Assembly (NCBI GenBank): GCA_000004695.1 | Contig: CM000154.2 | Span: 96,001 to 160,000, forward strand | Reading direction: 5' to 3' | Length of the DNA stretch: 64,000 bases | Origin: Dictyostelium discoideum | Lineage: Eukaryota | Shown here: in pieces, positions 2,175 to 23,650 of the stretch | Layout of the letters: each line of letters begins with the position of its first letter | Position numbering within the stretch: the first letter of the stretch is position 1 | Position numbers and translations under genes: made by a program | Notes under the pieces: generated by a model | Seen by the model: only the letters and a program-made list of their open reading frames with translations | Told to the model about the DNA's origin: nothing | Databases searched by the model: none

Positions 2175-3777
2175 TTATAAACTCATTTGATATAGCATAT
2201 TTTTTAAATATTCCTTATTGAAACGGTATAAAAAAAACATTACACACACACCCATTAATAATAAAATTCCTAACCCAATTAAAAAATAAGGAATTGGATA
2301 TTTTGGTGATGGATAAAAATTACCACCCAAAATTACAGTGAACAGAATTGCACTAAATATTGGTAAAATCATATGTCTGAAAAGTTGGAAATCTTTTGAT
2401 TGATAAACTTTAACATATCTAATCACTGCAATATTTGAAATTATAAATATTAAAATAATTGGAATTGTACCAGTAAAACTAATATAATTGTAAACTTCCC
2501 AACTCGATTCTGTATAAATACTTTTAGTTGAACCAACAATAATTGACGACATTAAAATTATAAAACCAGTTAAACTAATGATTGCATTATGTGGAGTTTT
2601 AAATTTTTGATTTGTTCTACCAAACCATGAAATAATTCCTTTCTCTTTAGTTTTACCAATTGAATAAATTATTCTAAAAACTATATTAAACCAACTACTA
2701 ATTACACCAAAAGTTGAAACTACACCAGCAATATCAATAATAACAGAATACCAAAATCCAATATATCTCTTTGCATAAATTCCAACAGGAAACTCATTTG
2801 TATCAATTGAAAATATATTTGAAGGCCCAGCAGCAACAACCAACGCATACATTGCCCATATAAACCAAGTTGCAGCAAATGCAATTGAGCCAAATACTGC
2901 AATTGGTATATTCTTTTTTGGATTTCTAGTTTCTTGACCTAATGTAGCGGCACCTTCAAATCCAACGAAAATGAATGTACAATAAACCAAACCAGTGGCA
3001 ATACCCGAAACTCCTCCGGAATATTCGCCAACTGGTGTGAATGCCAACGGATAATTACCTTGATCACCACCTTTAATTACAATTGTAAATGATAATCCTA
3101 AAATTACCAATGTCTCTAAAATCATTGCAATTATACTAGTTTTCAAAACAACATCAATACCAATATATGCCAACGTTGGAATTATCGTTACCACTATTAA
3201 TAAACTTAATATCCATGGACAATGAAAATCAGAATGCCTTGTTATTACATCTGAAAGCGAACCAACAAACATAAACATTGCGGACATCATAATTGCTAAA
3301 TATCCAATCATTAAAATCCAAACACTTAAAAATCCCATTTCATTTCCTAATCCTTTTGTAATATAAACAAAAAATGATGAACTACTACTAATATACTATA
3401 GATTTTTTTTTTTTTTTTTAAAAATTTTATTTTAATATTTTTATTTTAATTATTATAATTTTTAAAAATAAACTTACTTTACCAAATATACTAATTGTAT
3501 TTGCTACTGTTAAACAACATAATGCACCAAAAAAAATTGTAAATGGTACACTTGTACCTGCTGATGCTGCAATATTTGGATAAACAAAAAATGTTGCTGC
3601 ACTCAATCCAATACCACCAACTGATAATGCAATACATTCAATTACACCGATAGTATTTTTTTTTAATCCATCATAATGTGAATGATTATCTTCTTCATGT
3701 GATGAATTTATTCCTTCATTTTCAATTATTGCTCCCTCTTTTTGGAAATTTACTATATTACTATTTTCTAAACTCAT
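2175..3777 (-). CDS. APC-superfamily amino-acid permease, tandem paralog 2 (exon 1 3478-3777, exon 2 2175-3395)
   Basis: ORFs 3427-3777 and 2175-3338 are joined by a GTAAGT donor after ...SIFGK (phase 0) and a ctatag acceptor before YISSSSSFFVYITKGLGNEMGFL. Intron position and phase are identical to paralogs 1, 3 and 4. The product is about 506 aa with multiple TM segments. Confidence 0.85.
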
Positions 3778-4039
3778 TTTTAGATAATAAAAAAAAAAAA
3801 AACAAAAATAATAAAAAAAAAAAAATATTTAAACACGTATGTCATTTTTTACTTATTTTTATTTTTTTATTTTTGTTTTTTTAATATATCTCCCCACAAC
3901 ACACACCCACACTCCAATAATAATAGTTTTTTTTCAGAATTATTTAATATTAATTATTTATTCTCTATTTGCTTTAATAAAAAAATAAATAAAAATTAAT
4001 TATAACCAAATAATTAGTTGGTTTTTTTTTTTTTTTTTA

Positions 4040-4097
4040 AGATATAAAGTAATTAAAAGATATCCAATTATTTTGACTAAACTAATTTTAACTAATT
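4040..4097. promoter_or_regulatory. Conserved CCAAT-containing upstream block of permease paralog 2
   Basis: agatataaagtaattaaaagATATCCAATTATTTtgactaaactaatt lies about 260-320 bp 5' of the copy-2 ATG (3777, minus strand). A near-identical block recurs at the same relative position upstream of copies 3 and 4. Confidence 0.45.
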
Positions 4098-4159
4098 ATT
4101 TAATAAATAAATAAATAAATAAATATATAAATAAATAAATAAATAAATAAATTAATTAG

Positions 4160-4560
4160 TTTTTTTTTTTTCAAAGACCAATAATTTATATTATACTTTT
4201 ATAGAAGAAATTTTCATCATAAAAATTATTTCTTTGATTACAAATATTAATTAGGATACTAAAATCACCATAGTTTCGCCAATAACTAACATCAATGATA
4301 ATTTCAATGCTGGATTAATACCCACATAGGCTTATGCTGATATTAAAAGGTATGAATCTAGCATTTAAATTCTTTTACAAATGCTGCTATTATCCATGGG
4401 CAATGAAAATCAGTATCCCTCGATATTACATTGACTGTCGTTGAACTAAATTGAATCACCGTTTGCACTGATAATATTAAATAACCAATGATCATTAACC
4501 AAGCCGTTAAAAATCCCATCTCTTTTCCTAATCCTTCTGAAATAATACATATTATATATA
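4160..4560 (-). pseudogene. Internally deleted remnant of a divergent (copy-5 type) permease paralog
   Basis: Positions 4262-4560 are about 85% identical to copy-5 segment 9958-10210 (encoding ...EGLGKEMGFLTGWLMIIGYL...FHCPWI...). Positions 4190-4250 match the copy-5 3' end/stop region (8846-8900, gaaattttcatcataaa...aattatttctt). The two ends are joined with about 1.05 kb of ORF missing. There is no intact reading frame. Confidence 0.6.
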
Positions 4561-4674
4561 GTATCTTTTTATGTGTTTTTTTTATTGTTCTAATTTAATA
4601 TTTTAATTGTATTATTTAATAAAATAATAAATAAATATTAAAACCCTATATTTGTTTTTTATTTTTATCACCAA

Positions 4675-17253: not shown

Positions 17254-17385
17254 TTCCAATCATAAAATAAAATAAAATAAAATAAAATAAAATAAAATAA
17301 AATAAAATAAAATAAAAAAATTTAAAATTGTAATGGACCTTATGATTTTATTGTTGTTGTTGTTGTTGTTGTTGTTGTTTTGTTT
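17184..17385. repeat. Compound microsatellite (AAT)n - (AAAAT)n - (GTT)n
   Basis: About 23 AAT units (17184-17251) are followed by about 11 aaaat units (17265-17322) and about 10 gtt units (17353-17385). Confidence 0.9.
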
Positions 17386-17870
17386 ATTTAAATTCATTGT
17401 ATAAACTTAAATTTGATAAATAATTTCTATAGATTTTATTTGAACTATTTAAATGTGATGTATTTCTTCCAAACTCATAATCTCTATCAGCTAATCTGAG
17501 AGCTTCAAGATATTCATTATTATTAGATATTGGTACTGGAAATGGGAAACCATATTGAAACATTACCAAATTACCTAATAAACGAGACATTCTACAATTA
17601 CCATCTTCAAATGGACGAATACTAACAAGTGCATGAGAAAGCCATGCTGCAATTGCATATGGAGATGGTTTAATTAGAGAATTCCTTAATTGATTATATT
17701 TTCCAACTAATTTCTCCATTGATTCTTTAATTAATGAACTTTAGATAAAAACTTTTTGACCTTCAAAAACTTCATATGTTCTATAAGTAATAGGTGTAGC
17801 GATGATATTTTTCAGTAATATTGAGGCCCATTTCATTATATTGTCTACAGTTAGTGATTGATCTTTTTTT
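17384..17870 (-). pseudogene. Fic/Doc (Fido) domain remnant with a degenerate catalytic motif and an in-frame stop
   Basis: The minus frame reads ...TYRTYEVFEGQKVFI*SSLIKESMEKLVGKYNQLRNSLIKPSPYAIAAWLSHALVSIRPFEDGNCRMSRLLGNLVMFQYGFP.... The Fic signature HPFx[DE]GNGRxxR is present as RPFEDGNCRMSR, with H replaced by R and G replaced by C. An in-frame TAA at 17741-17743 sits 8 codons upstream of the only Met. A further TGA lies near 17860. Confidence 0.55.
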
Positions 17871-18375
17871 CAAATATATCTTAGGTTACATAAAAATGTT
17901 TTAAAAGTATTCTTTTTTTCGGATAATGAGAAGGTTTATAAATCAAATTCATCCTCCAAATCATTTTATGTATTTTTAAACGCTATACTAAATCCATATT
18001 AAGAATAAATAAAATTAAATCATTTTTAAAAAAAATAAGAAATAAAACCAAAATATATTTTTTTTTAAAGTTTTTAATTTTCCTCAACAAACTCCCACTT
18101 TTTTTTTTTAAAAAAACAATTCTTTTTTTTTTCTCATTTTTTTGACACCACTGACTCACATGATGTCAATACACCAAAAATAAATGACTACACTAACACT
18201 CAATATTAATATTAATAATAATAAAAAATCAATTTCACAATTTAAAACTAAAATAAATAAATTTTTTTTATTTTTTTTATTTTTTTTTTTTTAATAATCA
18301 AAATAAAAATATAACAAAGAAACCAATAAAAATAATAATAAAAATAAAAATAATAAAAATAAAATTAAAATTAAA

Positions 18376-20400
18376 ATGGTATCAGATAATAATAAAATTT
18401 TAAACCAATTACCAATTGTTATAATAAAGAAAATATTTAGAGAATTAGAACATGAAAAACCTAAACTCTCAGCTAAAACATGGTGTACTCATATGTTAAT
18501 GCATGGTATTCATCATTGTAATTCCACAAGTGTTAATGTTGTAATGTTATCACTAGTATGTAAAGATTGGGCATATCAAATTATACCAAGAATTGAATTA
18601 CCATGGTTCATTTCAAATGAAAAAGAGTATACATTCTTTAAGAGATGGAATGAATTTGGTATACTTTCAAATGGTATTACCAAATATCCTAAAATTTTAT
18701 TTGATCTTGACAGAGTTGAATTAAATTTTCCAGATGATTCTTTCAAGTATCCAACAATACCAATTTTAGAAAATATTAAATTAATTTCAAATTTTACAAT
18801 TGATGAATTAAATAGAATTCAAGAAAATAATAATAATAATAATAATAATATTGATAATAATATAAAATCATTAAAATCATTAAAAATTGAATTAAATAAT
18901 GATATAACCCAATCAGAATTAAATAAACCAAAAAATCAACAAATTAAAACATTATTAAAAAATAATCAACAATTAGAAACAATTGAATTTAAAGGAATTA
19001 GAGATTTTAATATAAAGATTGATTTTAATTTATTAATTAATGATTTCTTAATGAATTGTAATGATGAAAATAGAATAACAACAATAAAATCATTATCAAT
19101 TTCAAATTGTACATTAATAAATTATTCAATAAATAATAACAATAATAATGATGATATTAATAATAATAATAATAATAATAATCAATTATTATTATTGAAA
19201 TCATTAACAACATTAAAATTAATTGGAGTAGAATTTAAAGAAGATGGTAAAAGTTCATTAAGATTGTTGATTTCAGAATTGGAAAATTTAGAATATTTAA
19301 AATTAATAAATAATGATATTACATTTATTGATTCAATAATTGAAAAACTTTATTTTAATAATAAATTAAAGTGTTTAACTATAAAAGAACCAAAAGTAAT
19401 TCAAAATAATATTAATTGTTTAACAATTCAAACATTAATTCAATATAATACTCAATTGGAGAAAATTTCATTACAATTAAAAAAACTTGGTCAATCATAT
19501 CTTGAAAGTCCATCAATAATTAATTCAAATATAAATTATAAAATTTATACTGAAACTTTGGATTTACAAATTAATGGTAGTGAAAAACTTAAAGTTTTAA
19601 AAATTAATTCAAATTTCAATGTTATAATTAATCATTGTCCTTCATTAGAAAGATTATCAATAATTCAACATAGAGATTCAACATTACCATTCCTTTTAAA
19701 TAATATATCATTACCAACTTCACCATTTAAATCTTTACCAAATTTAAATTCTCTAACTTTTATTGGTGCAATTTTCAATTATTCAACAAAAGAATTCTTT
19801 AATGAATTATTTAATAATAATAATAATAATAATAACAACAATAATAAATTAAAAGAAATTGGTATAATTGATATAATAAATCAAGAAAACTGTTTAAATA
19901 ATTTATTAATATCAAGTTTTAATAATAATAATAATTTACAATATTTAAAAGTAAAAGTTAGTAAAAATATTTACATAAAAGATTTATTGAATTTATTAGA
20001 AAATTTGGTTTTAGAAAATTCACCACATTTAAAATCAGTTGAAATTATTATTTCAAGTGATTCTATTTATAGTAAACAAATTAATAAATGTTCAAATTTA
20101 ATTTTTCTTGAATTATTATCTGTACTTTGCTGCTCATCAAACTCAATGATTAAAAAAAATAATAAGAATTCAAATTTAAAATCAATAATATTAGTAAACA
20201 ATAATTATGTAAAAAGGTGTCTATGTAATTCTAGAAATGGTGCAAATGAAAATTGTACTTCTTTTATTGACTCAACAAATTTAATTACTTCATTAAATTC
20301 TTCTATTAATATTTTCTTACCTCAATGTTTAAAACCATTATTTAAACCCTATATAACCTCAATAAATCACTTAAATAATATCTGTTTTGATAGATGGTGA
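18376..20400 (+). CDS. F-box-like / leucine-rich-repeat-like protein with Asn-rich low-complexity inserts
   Basis: The single 674-aa ORF has an N-terminal LPIVIIKKIFRELEH (F-box-like LPxxIIxKIF) motif, followed by repeated L..L..L.N segments. The Cys-rich C-terminus is ...CLCNSRNGANENCTSF. Confidence 0.6.
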   Translation: MVSDNNKILNQLPIVIIKKIFRELEHEKPKLSAKTWCTHMLMHGIHHCNSTSVNVVMLSLVCKDWAYQIIPRIELPWFISNEKEYTFFKRWNEFGILSNGITKYPKILFDLDRVELNFPDDSFKYPTIPILENIKLISNFTIDELNRIQENNNNNNNNIDNNIKSLKSLKIELNNDITQSELNKPKNQQIKTLLKNNQQLETIEFKGIRDFNIKIDFNLLINDFLMNCNDENRITTIKSLSISNCTLINYSINNNNNNDDINNNNNNNNQLLLLKSLTTLKLIGVEFKEDGKSSLRLLISELENLEYLKLINNDITFIDSIIEKLYFNNKLKCLTIKEPKVIQNNINCLTIQTLIQYNTQLEKISLQLKKLGQSYLESPSIINSNINYKIYTETLDLQINGSEKLKVLKINSNFNVIINHCPSLERLSIIQHRDSTLPFLLNNISLPTSPFKSLPNLNSLTFIGAIFNYSTKEFFNELFNNNNNNNNNNNKLKEIGIIDIINQENCLNNLLISSFNNNNNLQYLKVKVSKNIYIKDLLNLLENLVLENSPHLKSVEIIISSDSIYSKQINKCSNLIFLELLSVLCCSSNSMIKKNNKNSNLKSIILVNNNYVKRCLCNSRNGANENCTSFIDSTNLITSLNSSINIFLPQCLKPLFKPYITSINHLNNICFDRW

Positions 20401-20787
20401 TTAAAAAAAAAATAAAAAATTTAATAATAAAAAAAAGATTTTCAAACTAAAGAGGAAAATAGATTTTCTTTTTTTGTTTTTTTTTTTATTGGACTATATC
20501 CTTCTTTTTAATTCTATTACCACAAACAACATTTTTACGCATACTGGGGAATAACCATCAATAAATTTATTTGATTTAGAAATCAATACCGTATAATAAA
20601 TTTTTTTGATTATTTGCAATTAATAAATAATAATTTGTACTTTTAACAATTGAAACTATAAAACTTTCTTTTTAATTGATTTAACTATTTAACTATTTAA
20701 CTATTTAACTATAAAAATTCATCTTTGAAACCAATTAACTACTTTTTCTAAGATTACCATCTTCATCAACTCTAACATCTTTTTTTA

Positions 20788-21348
20788 CTAATATTTGTTT
20801 ATCTTTTTTGATTGGTTGACTCTTTTCTTTGATTTTTCATTTTCATCTTTATCTTCATCATCTGCTGTTGATAATCCAGTTGGTGCTGCCCTTTTTTTAT
20901 TTACAATTGTTGGTTCAGTGGCAGTGGTAGTGGTTGCTTTTTTTGGTCTTCCTCTTGATCTTGGTGGTGCAACTTTTTCTTTTTCTTTTTCTTCTTCTTC
21001 TTTTTCTTCTTCTTTTTCCTCTTCTTCTTGAGAGTGTGATATTTGTGTTTTAAATGTATTGTATAAATTAAAATTTGTTTCTTTTTCTTTTTCTTTTTCT
21101 TTTTCTTTTTCTTTTTCTTTTTCTTTTTCTTTTTCTTTTTCTTTTTCTTTTTCTTTTTCTTTTTCTTCTTTTTCTTTTTCTATCTCTTCTTTTTCTTTCT
21201 CATATCTTTTAATATTTTCAATTCTTTTAATTACCTTTTTGTACATTTTTTTTGAAGCTTCTATTTTATCTTCAATTGGTTCGACCATGCCTAAATCAAA
21301 AAACATTAATTTCTCTTCATGTAACATTAATTTCTCTTCATGTAACAT
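20788..21348 (-). CDS. Acidic KEKE-repeat protein with an AT-hook (PRSRGRPKK)
   Basis: The ORF encodes (EKEK)n from a (ctttt/cttttt)n array, then an AT-hook GRP core and a basic tail. Its 5' end is a 22-bp x3 tandem repeat giving MLHEEKLMLHEEKL. The true start is possibly MFFDLGMVEP... or MVEPIEDK. Confidence 0.4.
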   Translation of the reverse strand: MLHEEKLMLHEEKLMFFDLGMVEPIEDKIEASKKMYKKVIKRIENIKRYEKEKEEIEKEKEEKEKEKEKEKEKEKEKEKEKEKEKEKEKETNFNLYNTFKTQISHSQEEEEKEEEKEEEEKEKEKVAPPRSRGRPKKATTTTATEPTIVNKKRAAPTGLSTADDEDKDENEKSKKRVNQSKKINKY

Positions 21349-21360
21349 TAATTTCTATAT
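21300..21360. repeat. 22-bp tandem repeat (catgtaacattaatttctcttc) x ~2.7
   Basis: Direct repeat copies are visible at the 5' end of ORF 20788-21348, immediately 3' of the kinase-like reading frame. Confidence 0.8.
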
Positions 21361-22631
21361 ATTTGCCAATATGTCTTAAAGATAAATCCAAATGTATATT
21401 TTGATTCTGAAAATTGATCACATGCATTTGATAATTTATTAACAAAAACATCTTTATTATAATCGATAGAGGTAATAGGTTTAAAAAATGGCATCAATAA
21501 ACAATACTCATTATTAAACATTGAAACCAATGTTTTGATACCCCAAATATTCAACCAATTTGTTTGTTCTGTGATAGCACTATCTCGACTTTTATTTTTA
21601 AAAAACTTGATTACAAATGCTTTAGCTTGATTGTTTATTGCTAACCATGCTTTACCCTCAGCACCTGAACCCAAGAGTGAAATTAAATAAATTACTTGGT
21701 AGTCTTCTTCTTTATTGAATTCCTCAATTGTATAAACTATTTAAATGGTATCGCTACCTTTGTCTTTGCATTCATCGCTAAAACTAATTTTACCTAAAGT
21801 TACCCATTTAAAAGAATTTTGATCAAATTTCATAAATGTATGATTTAATAGTAATCTTTGATCAACGTGAGAAAGCATCATCTTTTTAACTACAGTGCAA
21901 AGTGATTTAACCAATACGGATTCACCATTTTCAAAATCATTATATTTTATTACTGGTGATACGTATAAGAATCTCTCAACATCTTGAGTATGAGCATTTT
22001 GAAGTGAAACTAATAATTTTGGATCCAATTGAAGTTTTTCTGGAACTTGAATTTGGTGTAGTAGTATATTTAATTTTGGTATATTCTCCTCTGAAAATAG
22101 TTCAACATTTTCTTCTGAAGCGAGTTTGTTATCTTTCAACAATACGATTCTAGTTATATTGTAGCAGCTTAAAATACCAAAAAGATTTGTTACACCGTGT
22201 ATATTTTAGAGTAAGACCATATAATCAAAGAGTTGATGATATGATTTATTTGAAAAATTATCACATGGTCTTTTCAGTTTTATTACTCCTTTCGGAATAC
22301 CATGGTGAGTGATAATCAAAATATCTTCTTTAAAACTTGTAATTGAAATTTCAGTTTTAATTTTAAGATCTTCTTCAAGACCACATAATGCCAAGATATC
22401 TTTTATCAGCAAATTAAAACAAAGCAAAACATTGGCCCCACTTGAAATTTCATCTTGTTTTGAATCCATGCAATTCCATAATTTAGAGATTTTATAATCT
22501 AAATTGCTACAATATGGACTATATAAATTTTTAAATTCACTTTCTTGAATGTTACATTTTGTATGTTTGCTTGAAGCTGATCTATATGCTGATTTACTTA
22601 TTGAAAAGTTTGGTACACCTTTGGTTTTCAT
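21351..22631 (-). pseudogene. Protein-kinase-like reading frame interrupted by two in-frame TAA stops
   Basis: Track ORFs 22206-22631, 21741-22142 and 21348-21674 are all in the same minus frame. The 21- and 22-codon gaps between them are stop-free apart from single TAA codons at 22206-22208 and 21741-21743. The C-terminal segment encodes a kinase subdomain I/II: DYQVIYLISLLGSGAEGKAWLAINNQAKAFVIKFFK (Gly loop plus VAIK-like), then EQTNWLNIWG and LLMPFF (hinge-like). No intron of compatible length or phase explains the stops. Confidence 0.5.
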
Positions 22632-22636
22632 ATCTA

Positions 22637-22640
22637 ATAA

Positions 22641-22723
<83 letters not shown>

Positions 22724-22732
22724 ATATACAAC

Positions 22733-22772
<40 letters not shown>

Positions 22773-22782
22773 TAGTTAGTAT
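22637..22782. repeat. (AAAT)n then (AAT)n microsatellites
   Basis: (aaataaat)n spans 22637-22726 and (aat)n spans 22737-22782. Confidence 0.9.
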
Positions 22783-23149
22783 TAGTTAAAAATTATATTA
22801 ATAATTGACATAAATTTAATATAACCAACTTTCAATAAAACAACAACCGATTCCAATTGATAAAGTTCAAGTTTACCACGAGCCAATTTAAGTTGAACAT
22901 AAGGTTTTATTTTCTTTTCATATTTCTTTTTATCTTCATCTGTGGCATTCTTTAATTTTTCTGAATATTTACTAATTATTTCTTCAATATCTTTATTGTT
23001 CATTTTTAATTTAAACTACATAATATTATATTATTGCATTGAGCAACTGAATAATAAAATTAAAAAAAAAAAACTTTTAAAAAAAAAGTTTTAAAAAAAA
23101 ATATGGCGCCAGATTTCAGAAAACTCAATGACTAAAAATAAAAAATAAT

Positions 23150-23650
23150 AATCCAAATTTAAAATCAATAATATTAGTAAACAATAATTATGTAAAAAAG
23201 TGTCTATGTAATTCTAGAAATGGCACAAATGAAAATTGTACTTCTTTTATTGACTCAACAAATTTTATTACTTCATTAAATTCTTCTATTAATATTTTCT
23301 TACTTCAATGTTTATTATTTAAACCCTATATAACCTCAATAAATCATTTAAATAATATCTGTTTTGATAGATGGTGATTTTTTTTATAAAAAATAAAAAA
23401 TAAAAAAAAAATATAAATAAAAATAGATAGAATTAAAATTATCGAGATTGTGTTAACTTTTTTTTTTTTTTTTTTTTTTTCTAAACACCTTTTTCCCCTC
23501 TATTAATAAATGAATTTAAAAAATAAAAATAAAAATTTAAAAAATAAAAAAAAGATTTTTAACCATAAGAAGGAAATAGATTTTTTTTTTTTTTTTTTAA
23601 TTTTTTTTTTATTGTTTTTTGTTTGTTAGACTAGATCCTTCTTTTTAATT
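23150..23650 (+). repeat. Segmental duplicate of the 3' end plus 3' flank of gene 18376-20400
   Basis: Positions 23160-23380 are about 95% identical to 20170-20400 (...NLKSIILVNNNYVKRCLCNSRNGANENCTSFIDSTN...ICFDRW*), with a 9-bp deletion and a few substitutions. Positions 23560-23650 match the downstream flank 20435-20520 (aaaaaagattt..aaggaaatagatttt..ctagatccttctttttaattc). There is no upstream coding portion. Confidence 0.7.

Follow-up and report, generated by a model that had tools for sequence, protein, structure and literature searches.

The minus-strand stretch 23003-20788 of the window, the 64,000-nucleotide stretch of Dictyostelium discoideum DNA that was analysed here as a whole, is very probably a unitary pseudogene in the AX4-type lineage of this species, and its sequence marks it as a disabled member of the known, uncharacterised DUF5898 family. 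No full-length protein can come from it. The initial annotation had described a protein-kinase-like frame that was either a very young pseudogene with two nonsense mutations or a reference error, and its pseudogene call is upheld, while the age that it gave is not, as the copy is disabled by no fewer than four lesions (two nonsense codons, a 2-bp deletion and a net +28-nt insertion), perhaps by a fifth, and shows an excess of amino acid replacements. The features of the locus, all on the minus strand, are listed here from 5′ to 3′; L004 and L005 are orthologous loci in other assemblies.

22830-23003, minus strand: exon 1 relic, an N-terminal helical region (MNNKDIEE...VVVLLK) similar to the paralog N-termini
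22634-22829, minus strand: intron with (ATT)n and (ATTT)n microsatellites, homologous donor GTTGGT at 22829, acceptor ...TTATTAG at 22634
21399-22633, minus strand: main exon, first frame; paralog tblastn covers 22640-21396 at 46-57% identity
22137-22445, minus strand: PD-(D/E)xK nuclease-like module, degenerate in the window
22428-22445, minus strand: SSGANV of the nuclease-like module, helix Glu changed to Gly
22272-22328, minus strand: D...xK strands of the nuclease-like module, EDILIITHHGIPKGVIKLK, with Lys at the ExK Glu position
22206-22208, minus strand: nonsense codon 1, TAA, codon 142; CAA (Gln) in L004 and L005, Gln/Arg in paralogs
21741-21743, minus strand: nonsense codon 2, TAA, codon 297; CCA (Pro) in L004 and L005, Ser in paralogs
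21289-21674, minus strand: minimal kinase-like module (Pfam DUF5898), split over three frames
21651-21674, minus strand: G-loop LGSGAEGK, first frame
21600-21617, minus strand: FVIKFF with its Lys, first frame
21555-21572, minus strand: alphaC Glu (TEQTNW), first frame
21397-21400, minus strand: frameshift 1, AT (2 bp) lost from an (AT)n run; TCAAA--ATATAC vs TCAAAATATATAC in L004 and L005
21371-21394, minus strand: catalytic loop HLDLSLRH, second frame
21302-21356, minus strand: frameshift 2, 21-bp tandem repeat x 2.6, unit GAAATTAATGTTACATGAAGA (TRF)
21289-21303, minus strand: FFDLG (DFG equivalent), third frame
20788-21288, minus strand: C-terminal tail, third frame; helix, KEKE run, AT-hook core, stop
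21079-21201, minus strand: KEKE low-complexity run
20938-20961, minus strand: AT-hook core RSRGRPKK, kept in L004 and L005
20788-20790, minus strand: gene stop codon

Three reading frames of one apparent gene

The window is low in G+C (~22%) and contains poly-Asn tracts and long AT microsatellites. Translation of 22631-21351 (minus strand) gave a single frame of 427 codons with exactly two in-frame stops, as had been described, and this frame terminates at a TAA at 21348-21350; the three ORFs that the initial annotation had joined (22206-22631, 21741-22142 and 21348-21674, minus strand) do share it, and the peptide cited there, DYQVIYLISLLGSGAEGKAWLAINNQAKAFVIKFFK, is found in the translation. 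The remaining five frames hold 24-57 stops each over the same stretch, and 2000 shuffles of it had a mean of 38 stops and a minimum of 22, so the openness of the 427-codon frame is far from chance.

Used as a database query, the repaired translation matched five intact paralogs of D. discoideum at 46-57% identity over 77-100% of the query length, all of which carry DUF5898 (PF19250), and one of which is AX4 DDB_G0282827. When these paralogs were searched against the window using tblastn, they matched three successive pieces in three frames (22640-21396, 21397-21359 and 21318-21217). Beyond the segment that had been called a kinase, the other two frames encode NIHLDLSLRHIGKY and then KLMFFDLGMVEPIEDK, which resemble the catalytic loop and the DFG motif of kinases, and in the alignment the paralogs are co-linear across both frame changes (QFSNSGYLHSDLSLRHVGKY...KFIFFDLGLVEII), indicating that the ORF at 20788-21348 starts within the kinase-like domain. 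This KEKE/AT-hook ORF had been taken for a fusion partner of the open frame, from which two frameshifts separate it, and it reads instead as the displaced C-terminus of the same gene, with no separate gene there. The second of these frameshifts involves a repeat that had been described as 22 bp long and triplicated, and that TRF resolved as a 21-bp unit in 2.6 copies; compared with the orthologs the site has a net gain of 28 nt, aligned to 21321-21348, in the spacer separating the HxD loop from the D-L-G motif, and the paralogs lack the repeat. The other indels in the tail relative to L004 and L005 are multiples of three, except for a 1-bp difference in an A-run at ~20810 that alters the last few codons only.

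The tail is AT-hook-like by motif, with an R-G-R-P core and basic flanks that would suit such an element, and its Pfam AT_hook match was below threshold in both the repaired translation and the intact ortholog (11.4-12 bits, E = 0.2-0.3, vs a gathering score of 17.4). The length of the KEKE tail varies by lineage, with differences of +54, -12, +6 and -12 nt vs L005 that keep the frame (21074-21198 and 20973-21029); these indels are of (GAAAAA)n-type repeats, which grow and shrink without frame loss.

At the other end of the gene, an ORF of 73 aa at 22782-23003 (minus strand) is an exact match to AX4 DDB_G0287433 (XP_637230.1, Q54KJ3). Annotated in AX4 as a stand-alone hypothetical protein, it is in fact exon 1 of the DUF5898 pseudogene, left without the rest of its gene. 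Between it and the long exon, TRF found (AATA)22 at 22639-22726 and (AAT)13 at 22733-22772. The homologous intron of L005 (2649-2957, 309 nt, GT..AG) yields exactly the annotated 648-aa product when it is removed, and since that model needs one GT..AG intron, the ancestral gene is best read as a two-exon gene with 22634-22829 as its intron. The structure that we propose for 23003-20788 (minus strand) is, thus, an exon 1, a microsatellite intron and one long exon. The window lacks one G directly before the homologous exon-1 donor, and splicing at the donor at 22829 would be out of frame (...VVVLLKI followed by a stop). This 1-bp loss is only a possible fifth lesion, because an alternative donor, GTTATA at 22825, 4 nt downstream, would keep the frame.

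Orthologous loci and a second AX4-like assembly

Syntenic regions were retrieved from three other assemblies by exact-protein look-up and neighbouring genes: GCA_054883475.1 (L001/L006), GCA_054859355.1 (L005) and GCA_054859385.1 (L004). At L005 (2480-4735) the gene is intact and syntenic, reading CAA where the window has its first TAA and CCA where it has its second, and its frame is open for 680 codons, running from DUF5898 through the KEKE run and RSRGRPKK to the stop. The L004 ortholog (2462-4616) lacks the lesions of the window and has nonsense codons of its own, TTG to TAG after ...PEKLQ and AAA to TAA in exon 1, and is nonetheless annotated as a 608-aa product; its sequence suggests that this copy is decaying independently of the one in the window, in a second lineage. 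L004, L005 and L006 have the same neighbours, namely a 674-aa gene, a Fic gene, an acetyltransferase, TFIIE-beta and CLU. The window copy has kept its ancestral position, flanks and intron, as a unitary, non-processed pseudogene does. A transposon-borne gene was ruled out, as the window and P0001 loci both lie amid housekeeping genes with conserved synteny.

Divergence at these loci is high. Both L004 and L005 are labelled D. discoideum, and across the 20-kb loci, genes and spacers alike, they are ~88-92% identical to the window, with a dS of ~0.12 for the pseudogene vs its orthologs. Divergence of this size is far greater than is usual within D. discoideum, and the two assemblies may come from a lineage that split off deeply or from a sister species under the wrong label.

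Two neighbours also differ among the lineages. The Fic-domain gene at 17384-17962 (minus strand) has decayed in the lineage of the window as well: the 269-aa Fic protein of L005 matches the window only from aa 73 on, at 77% identity, and the window has an in-frame TAA (GQKVFI-stop-SSLIKES vs GQKVFISHSLIKES), only a 111-aa ORF called (17384-17719) and the motif RPFEDGNCR where L005 has RPFEHANGR. The adjacent poly-Asn-rich ORF (18376-20400, plus strand), with no Pfam hit on record, is 674 aa long in the AX4-like sequence, 698 aa in L004 and 675 aa in L005.

The option of a reference error would have a sequencing or assembly fault hiding a gene that is truly intact. In its favour, DNA so rich in AT and in repeats is prone to errors, and the (AT)n run and the 21-bp repeat each contain one of the lesions. 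We regard such an error as exceedingly improbable, because GCA_054883475.1 is 100% identical to the window over 20501-23400, with every lesion present, even though the two differ by 1 mismatch and 8 indels across 22 kb (99.83% identity). These assemblies were built separately, since their chromosome records differ in length (5,288,541 vs 5,125,352 bp). Both nonsense codons are base substitutions outside repetitive sequence, and the uneven tally of unique replacements at conserved sites (20 in the window copy and 6 in L005, see below) would not be expected from sequencing error. A systematic error shared by the two AX4-like assemblies is very unlikely in view of the four different kinds of lesion.

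Possible full-length or shorter products

The automated annotation of GCA_054883475.1 places a 599-aa product over exactly the span of the pseudogene, 20788-23003 (L001 12413-14628), which would fit a functional gene rescued by introns, stop readthrough or programmed frameshifting. Against this, no 599-aa ORF resulted when GT-AG introns of 45 nt or more were removed in any combination of up to five, and the sole dynamic-programming solution requires micro-introns of 26-57 nt, which are shorter than Dictyostelium introns are known to be. Around each lesion, the sequence corresponds by homology to coding regions of the intronless paralog P0001 and of the intact ortholog, and as both of these read through the two stop sites, the earlier statement that no introns remove the stops holds. 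Rescue would require four separate recoding events in a gene whose conserved residues are being lost. It is highly improbable that a full-length protein is restored in this way, and the 599-aa model probably arose as an artefact when a gene predictor bypassed the stops and frameshifts by splicing. A different genetic code or readthrough was also rejected, as frameshifts accompany the stops and neighbouring ORFs end normally.

Gene fission instead of gene death would leave a partly functional remnant from which one or more shorter proteins are expressed, with an N-terminal fragment of ~200 aa (exon 1 plus 141 aa) and the 186-aa KEKE/AT-hook ORF as the candidates. The 186-aa ORF is open, the tandem repeat has given it three ATG starts (MLHEEKLMLHEEKLMFFDLG), and its AT-hook core is the one kept in both L004 and L005; the 73-aa ORF of exon 1 was retained as a gene by the AX4 annotators. 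However, the ORF products other than the 73-aa one are absent from protein sets and gene calls: the 141-aa, 186-aa and junction products had no match in protein collections or gene calls, and those of 141 and 186 aa had no exact match in assembled contigs. A promoter of its own was not found for the 186-aa ORF, and the low-complexity tail that it encodes tolerates many indels. We consider a functional remnant improbable, and the unitary pseudogene remains our reading of the locus.

Extent and course of decay

A comparison of the window copy with its L005 ortholog gave a dN/dS of 0.57-0.69, a value that reflects weak constraint averaged across both branches. In a relative-rate test on sites where the paralogs agree, there were 20 unique replacements in the window copy and 6 in L005 (binomial p = 0.009). 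Changes found only in the window hit three positions that are near-invariant in 121 family members (P0001 numbering), all of them in the nuclease-like module: the Glu of E155 is replaced with Gly, Gly222 with His (SYHQLFDYM) and Trp254 with Leu (RIVLL). From these comparisons, the window copy has drifted over an appreciable share of its branch and is moderately decayed.

The ancestral gene would have had two exons with the microsatellite intron between them and a product of ~600-650 aa, in which an N-terminal helical region, a PD-(D/E)xK-like module, a minimal kinase-like module and a KEKE/AT-hook tail followed one another. The first TAA may have arisen most simply by CAA to TAA, and the second would need at least one change from a Ser or Pro codon. 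The first frameshift would be a microsatellite-type contraction of 2 bp, and the second a slippage-type triplication of the 21-bp unit with its net +28 nt.

The kinase-like module

The initial annotation had seen a classic kinase in the last segment of the open frame. Part of this claim stands, as the C-terminal part of the protein is homologous to protein kinases (G-loop, VAIK-type Lys, alphaC Glu, HxD and D-L-G), and part does not, since the Pkinase HMM (PF00069), run after in-silico removal of the stops, had no match at E <= 10. The intact ortholog gave no Pkinase match either, and only DUF5898 and the weak AT_hook were found in the repaired translation. With hmmscan, the repaired translation matched DUF5898 (PF19250) at 115.1 bits (E = 1.8e-33, model 2-109/109), well above the gathering score of 28.9 bits and over the whole model, and the intact ortholog matched it at E = 3.8e-35. 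DUF5898 is among the families of the Pfam PKinase clan (PMC9758233). The module consists of an N-lobe, a catalytic loop and the DFG equivalent, just past which the model stops, and no activation segment or subdomains VIII-XI were found that would make up a complete bilobal domain. NleH and OspG are minimal kinase folds that lack subdomains VIII-XI (PMC12756638), which agrees with a domain ending just past the D-L-G motif.

The repaired translation contains every kinase catalytic residue. Since three different frames encode them in the window, no single polypeptide can hold them all. Among 121 family sequences, the C-terminal signature is strongly conserved: E449 is present in all 121, K435 in 120, G416 and G419 in 118 each, D510 in 114, D531 in 113 and H508 in 110. 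At the metal-binding position, 515, His is found in 103 of the 121 and the canonical Asn in 16. Because these catalytic residues are conserved across the family, the kinase module of the intact protein probably bound ATP and transferred phosphate.

The fold was analysed using the paralog P0001, which comes from another locus and is ~55% identical, in an AlphaFold2 model built with the 121-sequence alignment (pLDDT 87.9, pTM 0.80). With Foldseek, the model matched kinase domains over ~160 columns with a probability of 1.0, and its superposition on solved kinases points to a protein-kinase-like fold. The family profile searched against the PDB matched CaMK1G (2.3e-9) and CK2alpha' (1.3e-8), aligned over the G-loop to DFG region only. 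In structure, the predicted module comes closest to the minimal kinases NleH, OspG and Rio.

The nuclease-like module

Upstream of the kinase-like module, the family has an N-terminal signature, E...RPDIWV...G.P.GV.EVKKP, in which K210 is conserved in 118 of the 121 sequences, E155 in 112, D193 in 109 and E208 in 103. Residues 155-254 of the P0001 model form an alpha-beta-beta-beta-alpha-beta arrangement, and E155, D193 and xK210 sit where we expected them in a PD-(D/E)xK core. The intact ortholog had an HSDR_N_2 match over the same stretch that was below the gathering score (E = 0.013). According to the model, this module is probably closest to the PD-(D/E)xK domains of restriction enzymes (BpuSI, DrdV, HSDR_N). 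In the D. discoideum clade it had probably already lost catalysis, because Q, L or K takes the place of the ExK Glu there.

Taken together, the AT-hook-like tail and the nuclease-like DNA-binding module suggest that the intact protein would have been a nuclear, chromatin- or DNA-associated enzyme at AT-rich DNA.

Discussion

The pseudogene itself is routine and does not overturn expectations, but it leads to corrections of the annotation of DDB_G0287433, of the 599-aa model in GCA_054883475.1 and of the KEKE/AT-hook ORF, and it shows that DUF5898 members have been lost independently in closely related Dictyostelium lineages. In our full-text literature searches, DUF5898 came up solely in a list of clan families, and those on an architecture of PD-(D/E)xK plus kinase, on DDB_G0287433 and on DDB_G0282827 found nothing relevant. 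The architecture of the family, a PD-(D/E)xK-like module with a minimal kinase core, seems not to have been described before.

An exhaustive HMMER search with P0001 matched 766 cluster representatives (at 50% identity) with E <= 1e-3, of which 312 had E <= 1e-10, mostly proteins of 450-550 aa that align in two blocks. A profile search of a word-indexed protein database matched the five close paralogs only, probably because low-complexity words flooded its prefilter. Taxonomy was taken from cluster look-ups, in which the named members are mainly dictyostelids and belong to D. purpureum, D. dimigraforme, Tieghemostelium lacteum, Synstelium polycarpum and one choanoflagellate transcriptome, and the others looked up are ENA, Logan or JGI sequences. 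One tentative idea, which we consider unlikely, is that DUF5898 proteins form a eukaryotic system of conflict or surveillance that turns over fast and has nucleic acids or chromatin as its target. If so, the independent knock-outs, in the window and by TAG and TAA in L004, together with the intact third copy, would be a presence/absence polymorphism, and shifting selection, not simple neutral decay, would lie behind the losses at this locus. The family is a reasonable candidate for biochemical study.

Within the DUF5898 family, the window copy differs by its two stops and two frameshifts. The paralogs P0001-P0003 are 52-57% identical to it over 95-100% of the length and share the module order, whereas P0001 is intronless (a single 1776-nt exon) and the ortholog group of the pseudogene has the microsatellite intron, and the five aligned paralogs lack the KEKE/AT-hook tail of that ortholog group.

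Compared with canonical kinases such as CaMK1 and CK2alpha, the family profile aligns the G-loop, the VAIK Lys, the alphaC Glu, the HRD-type loop and the DFG Asp (2e-9 to 1e-8), but the DUF5898 module is only ~170 aa long and lacks the activation segment, the APE motif and the alphaF-alphaI helices. The minimal kinases NleH1/2, OspG and Rio1/Rio2 are nearer in predicted structure, with a sequence identity of only 12-16%; they differ from the family, which has His and not Asn at the metal-binding position and D-L-G/S/A and not DFG, and the NleH and OspG effectors are bacterial, secreted and without a nuclease-like module. Type IIG and type I restriction enzymes, to which the nuclease-like module is probably closest, have methyltransferase or specificity domains that the DUF5898 protein does not, and the DUF5898 protein differs from them in being eukaryotic and in joining its nuclease-like module to a kinase-like one.
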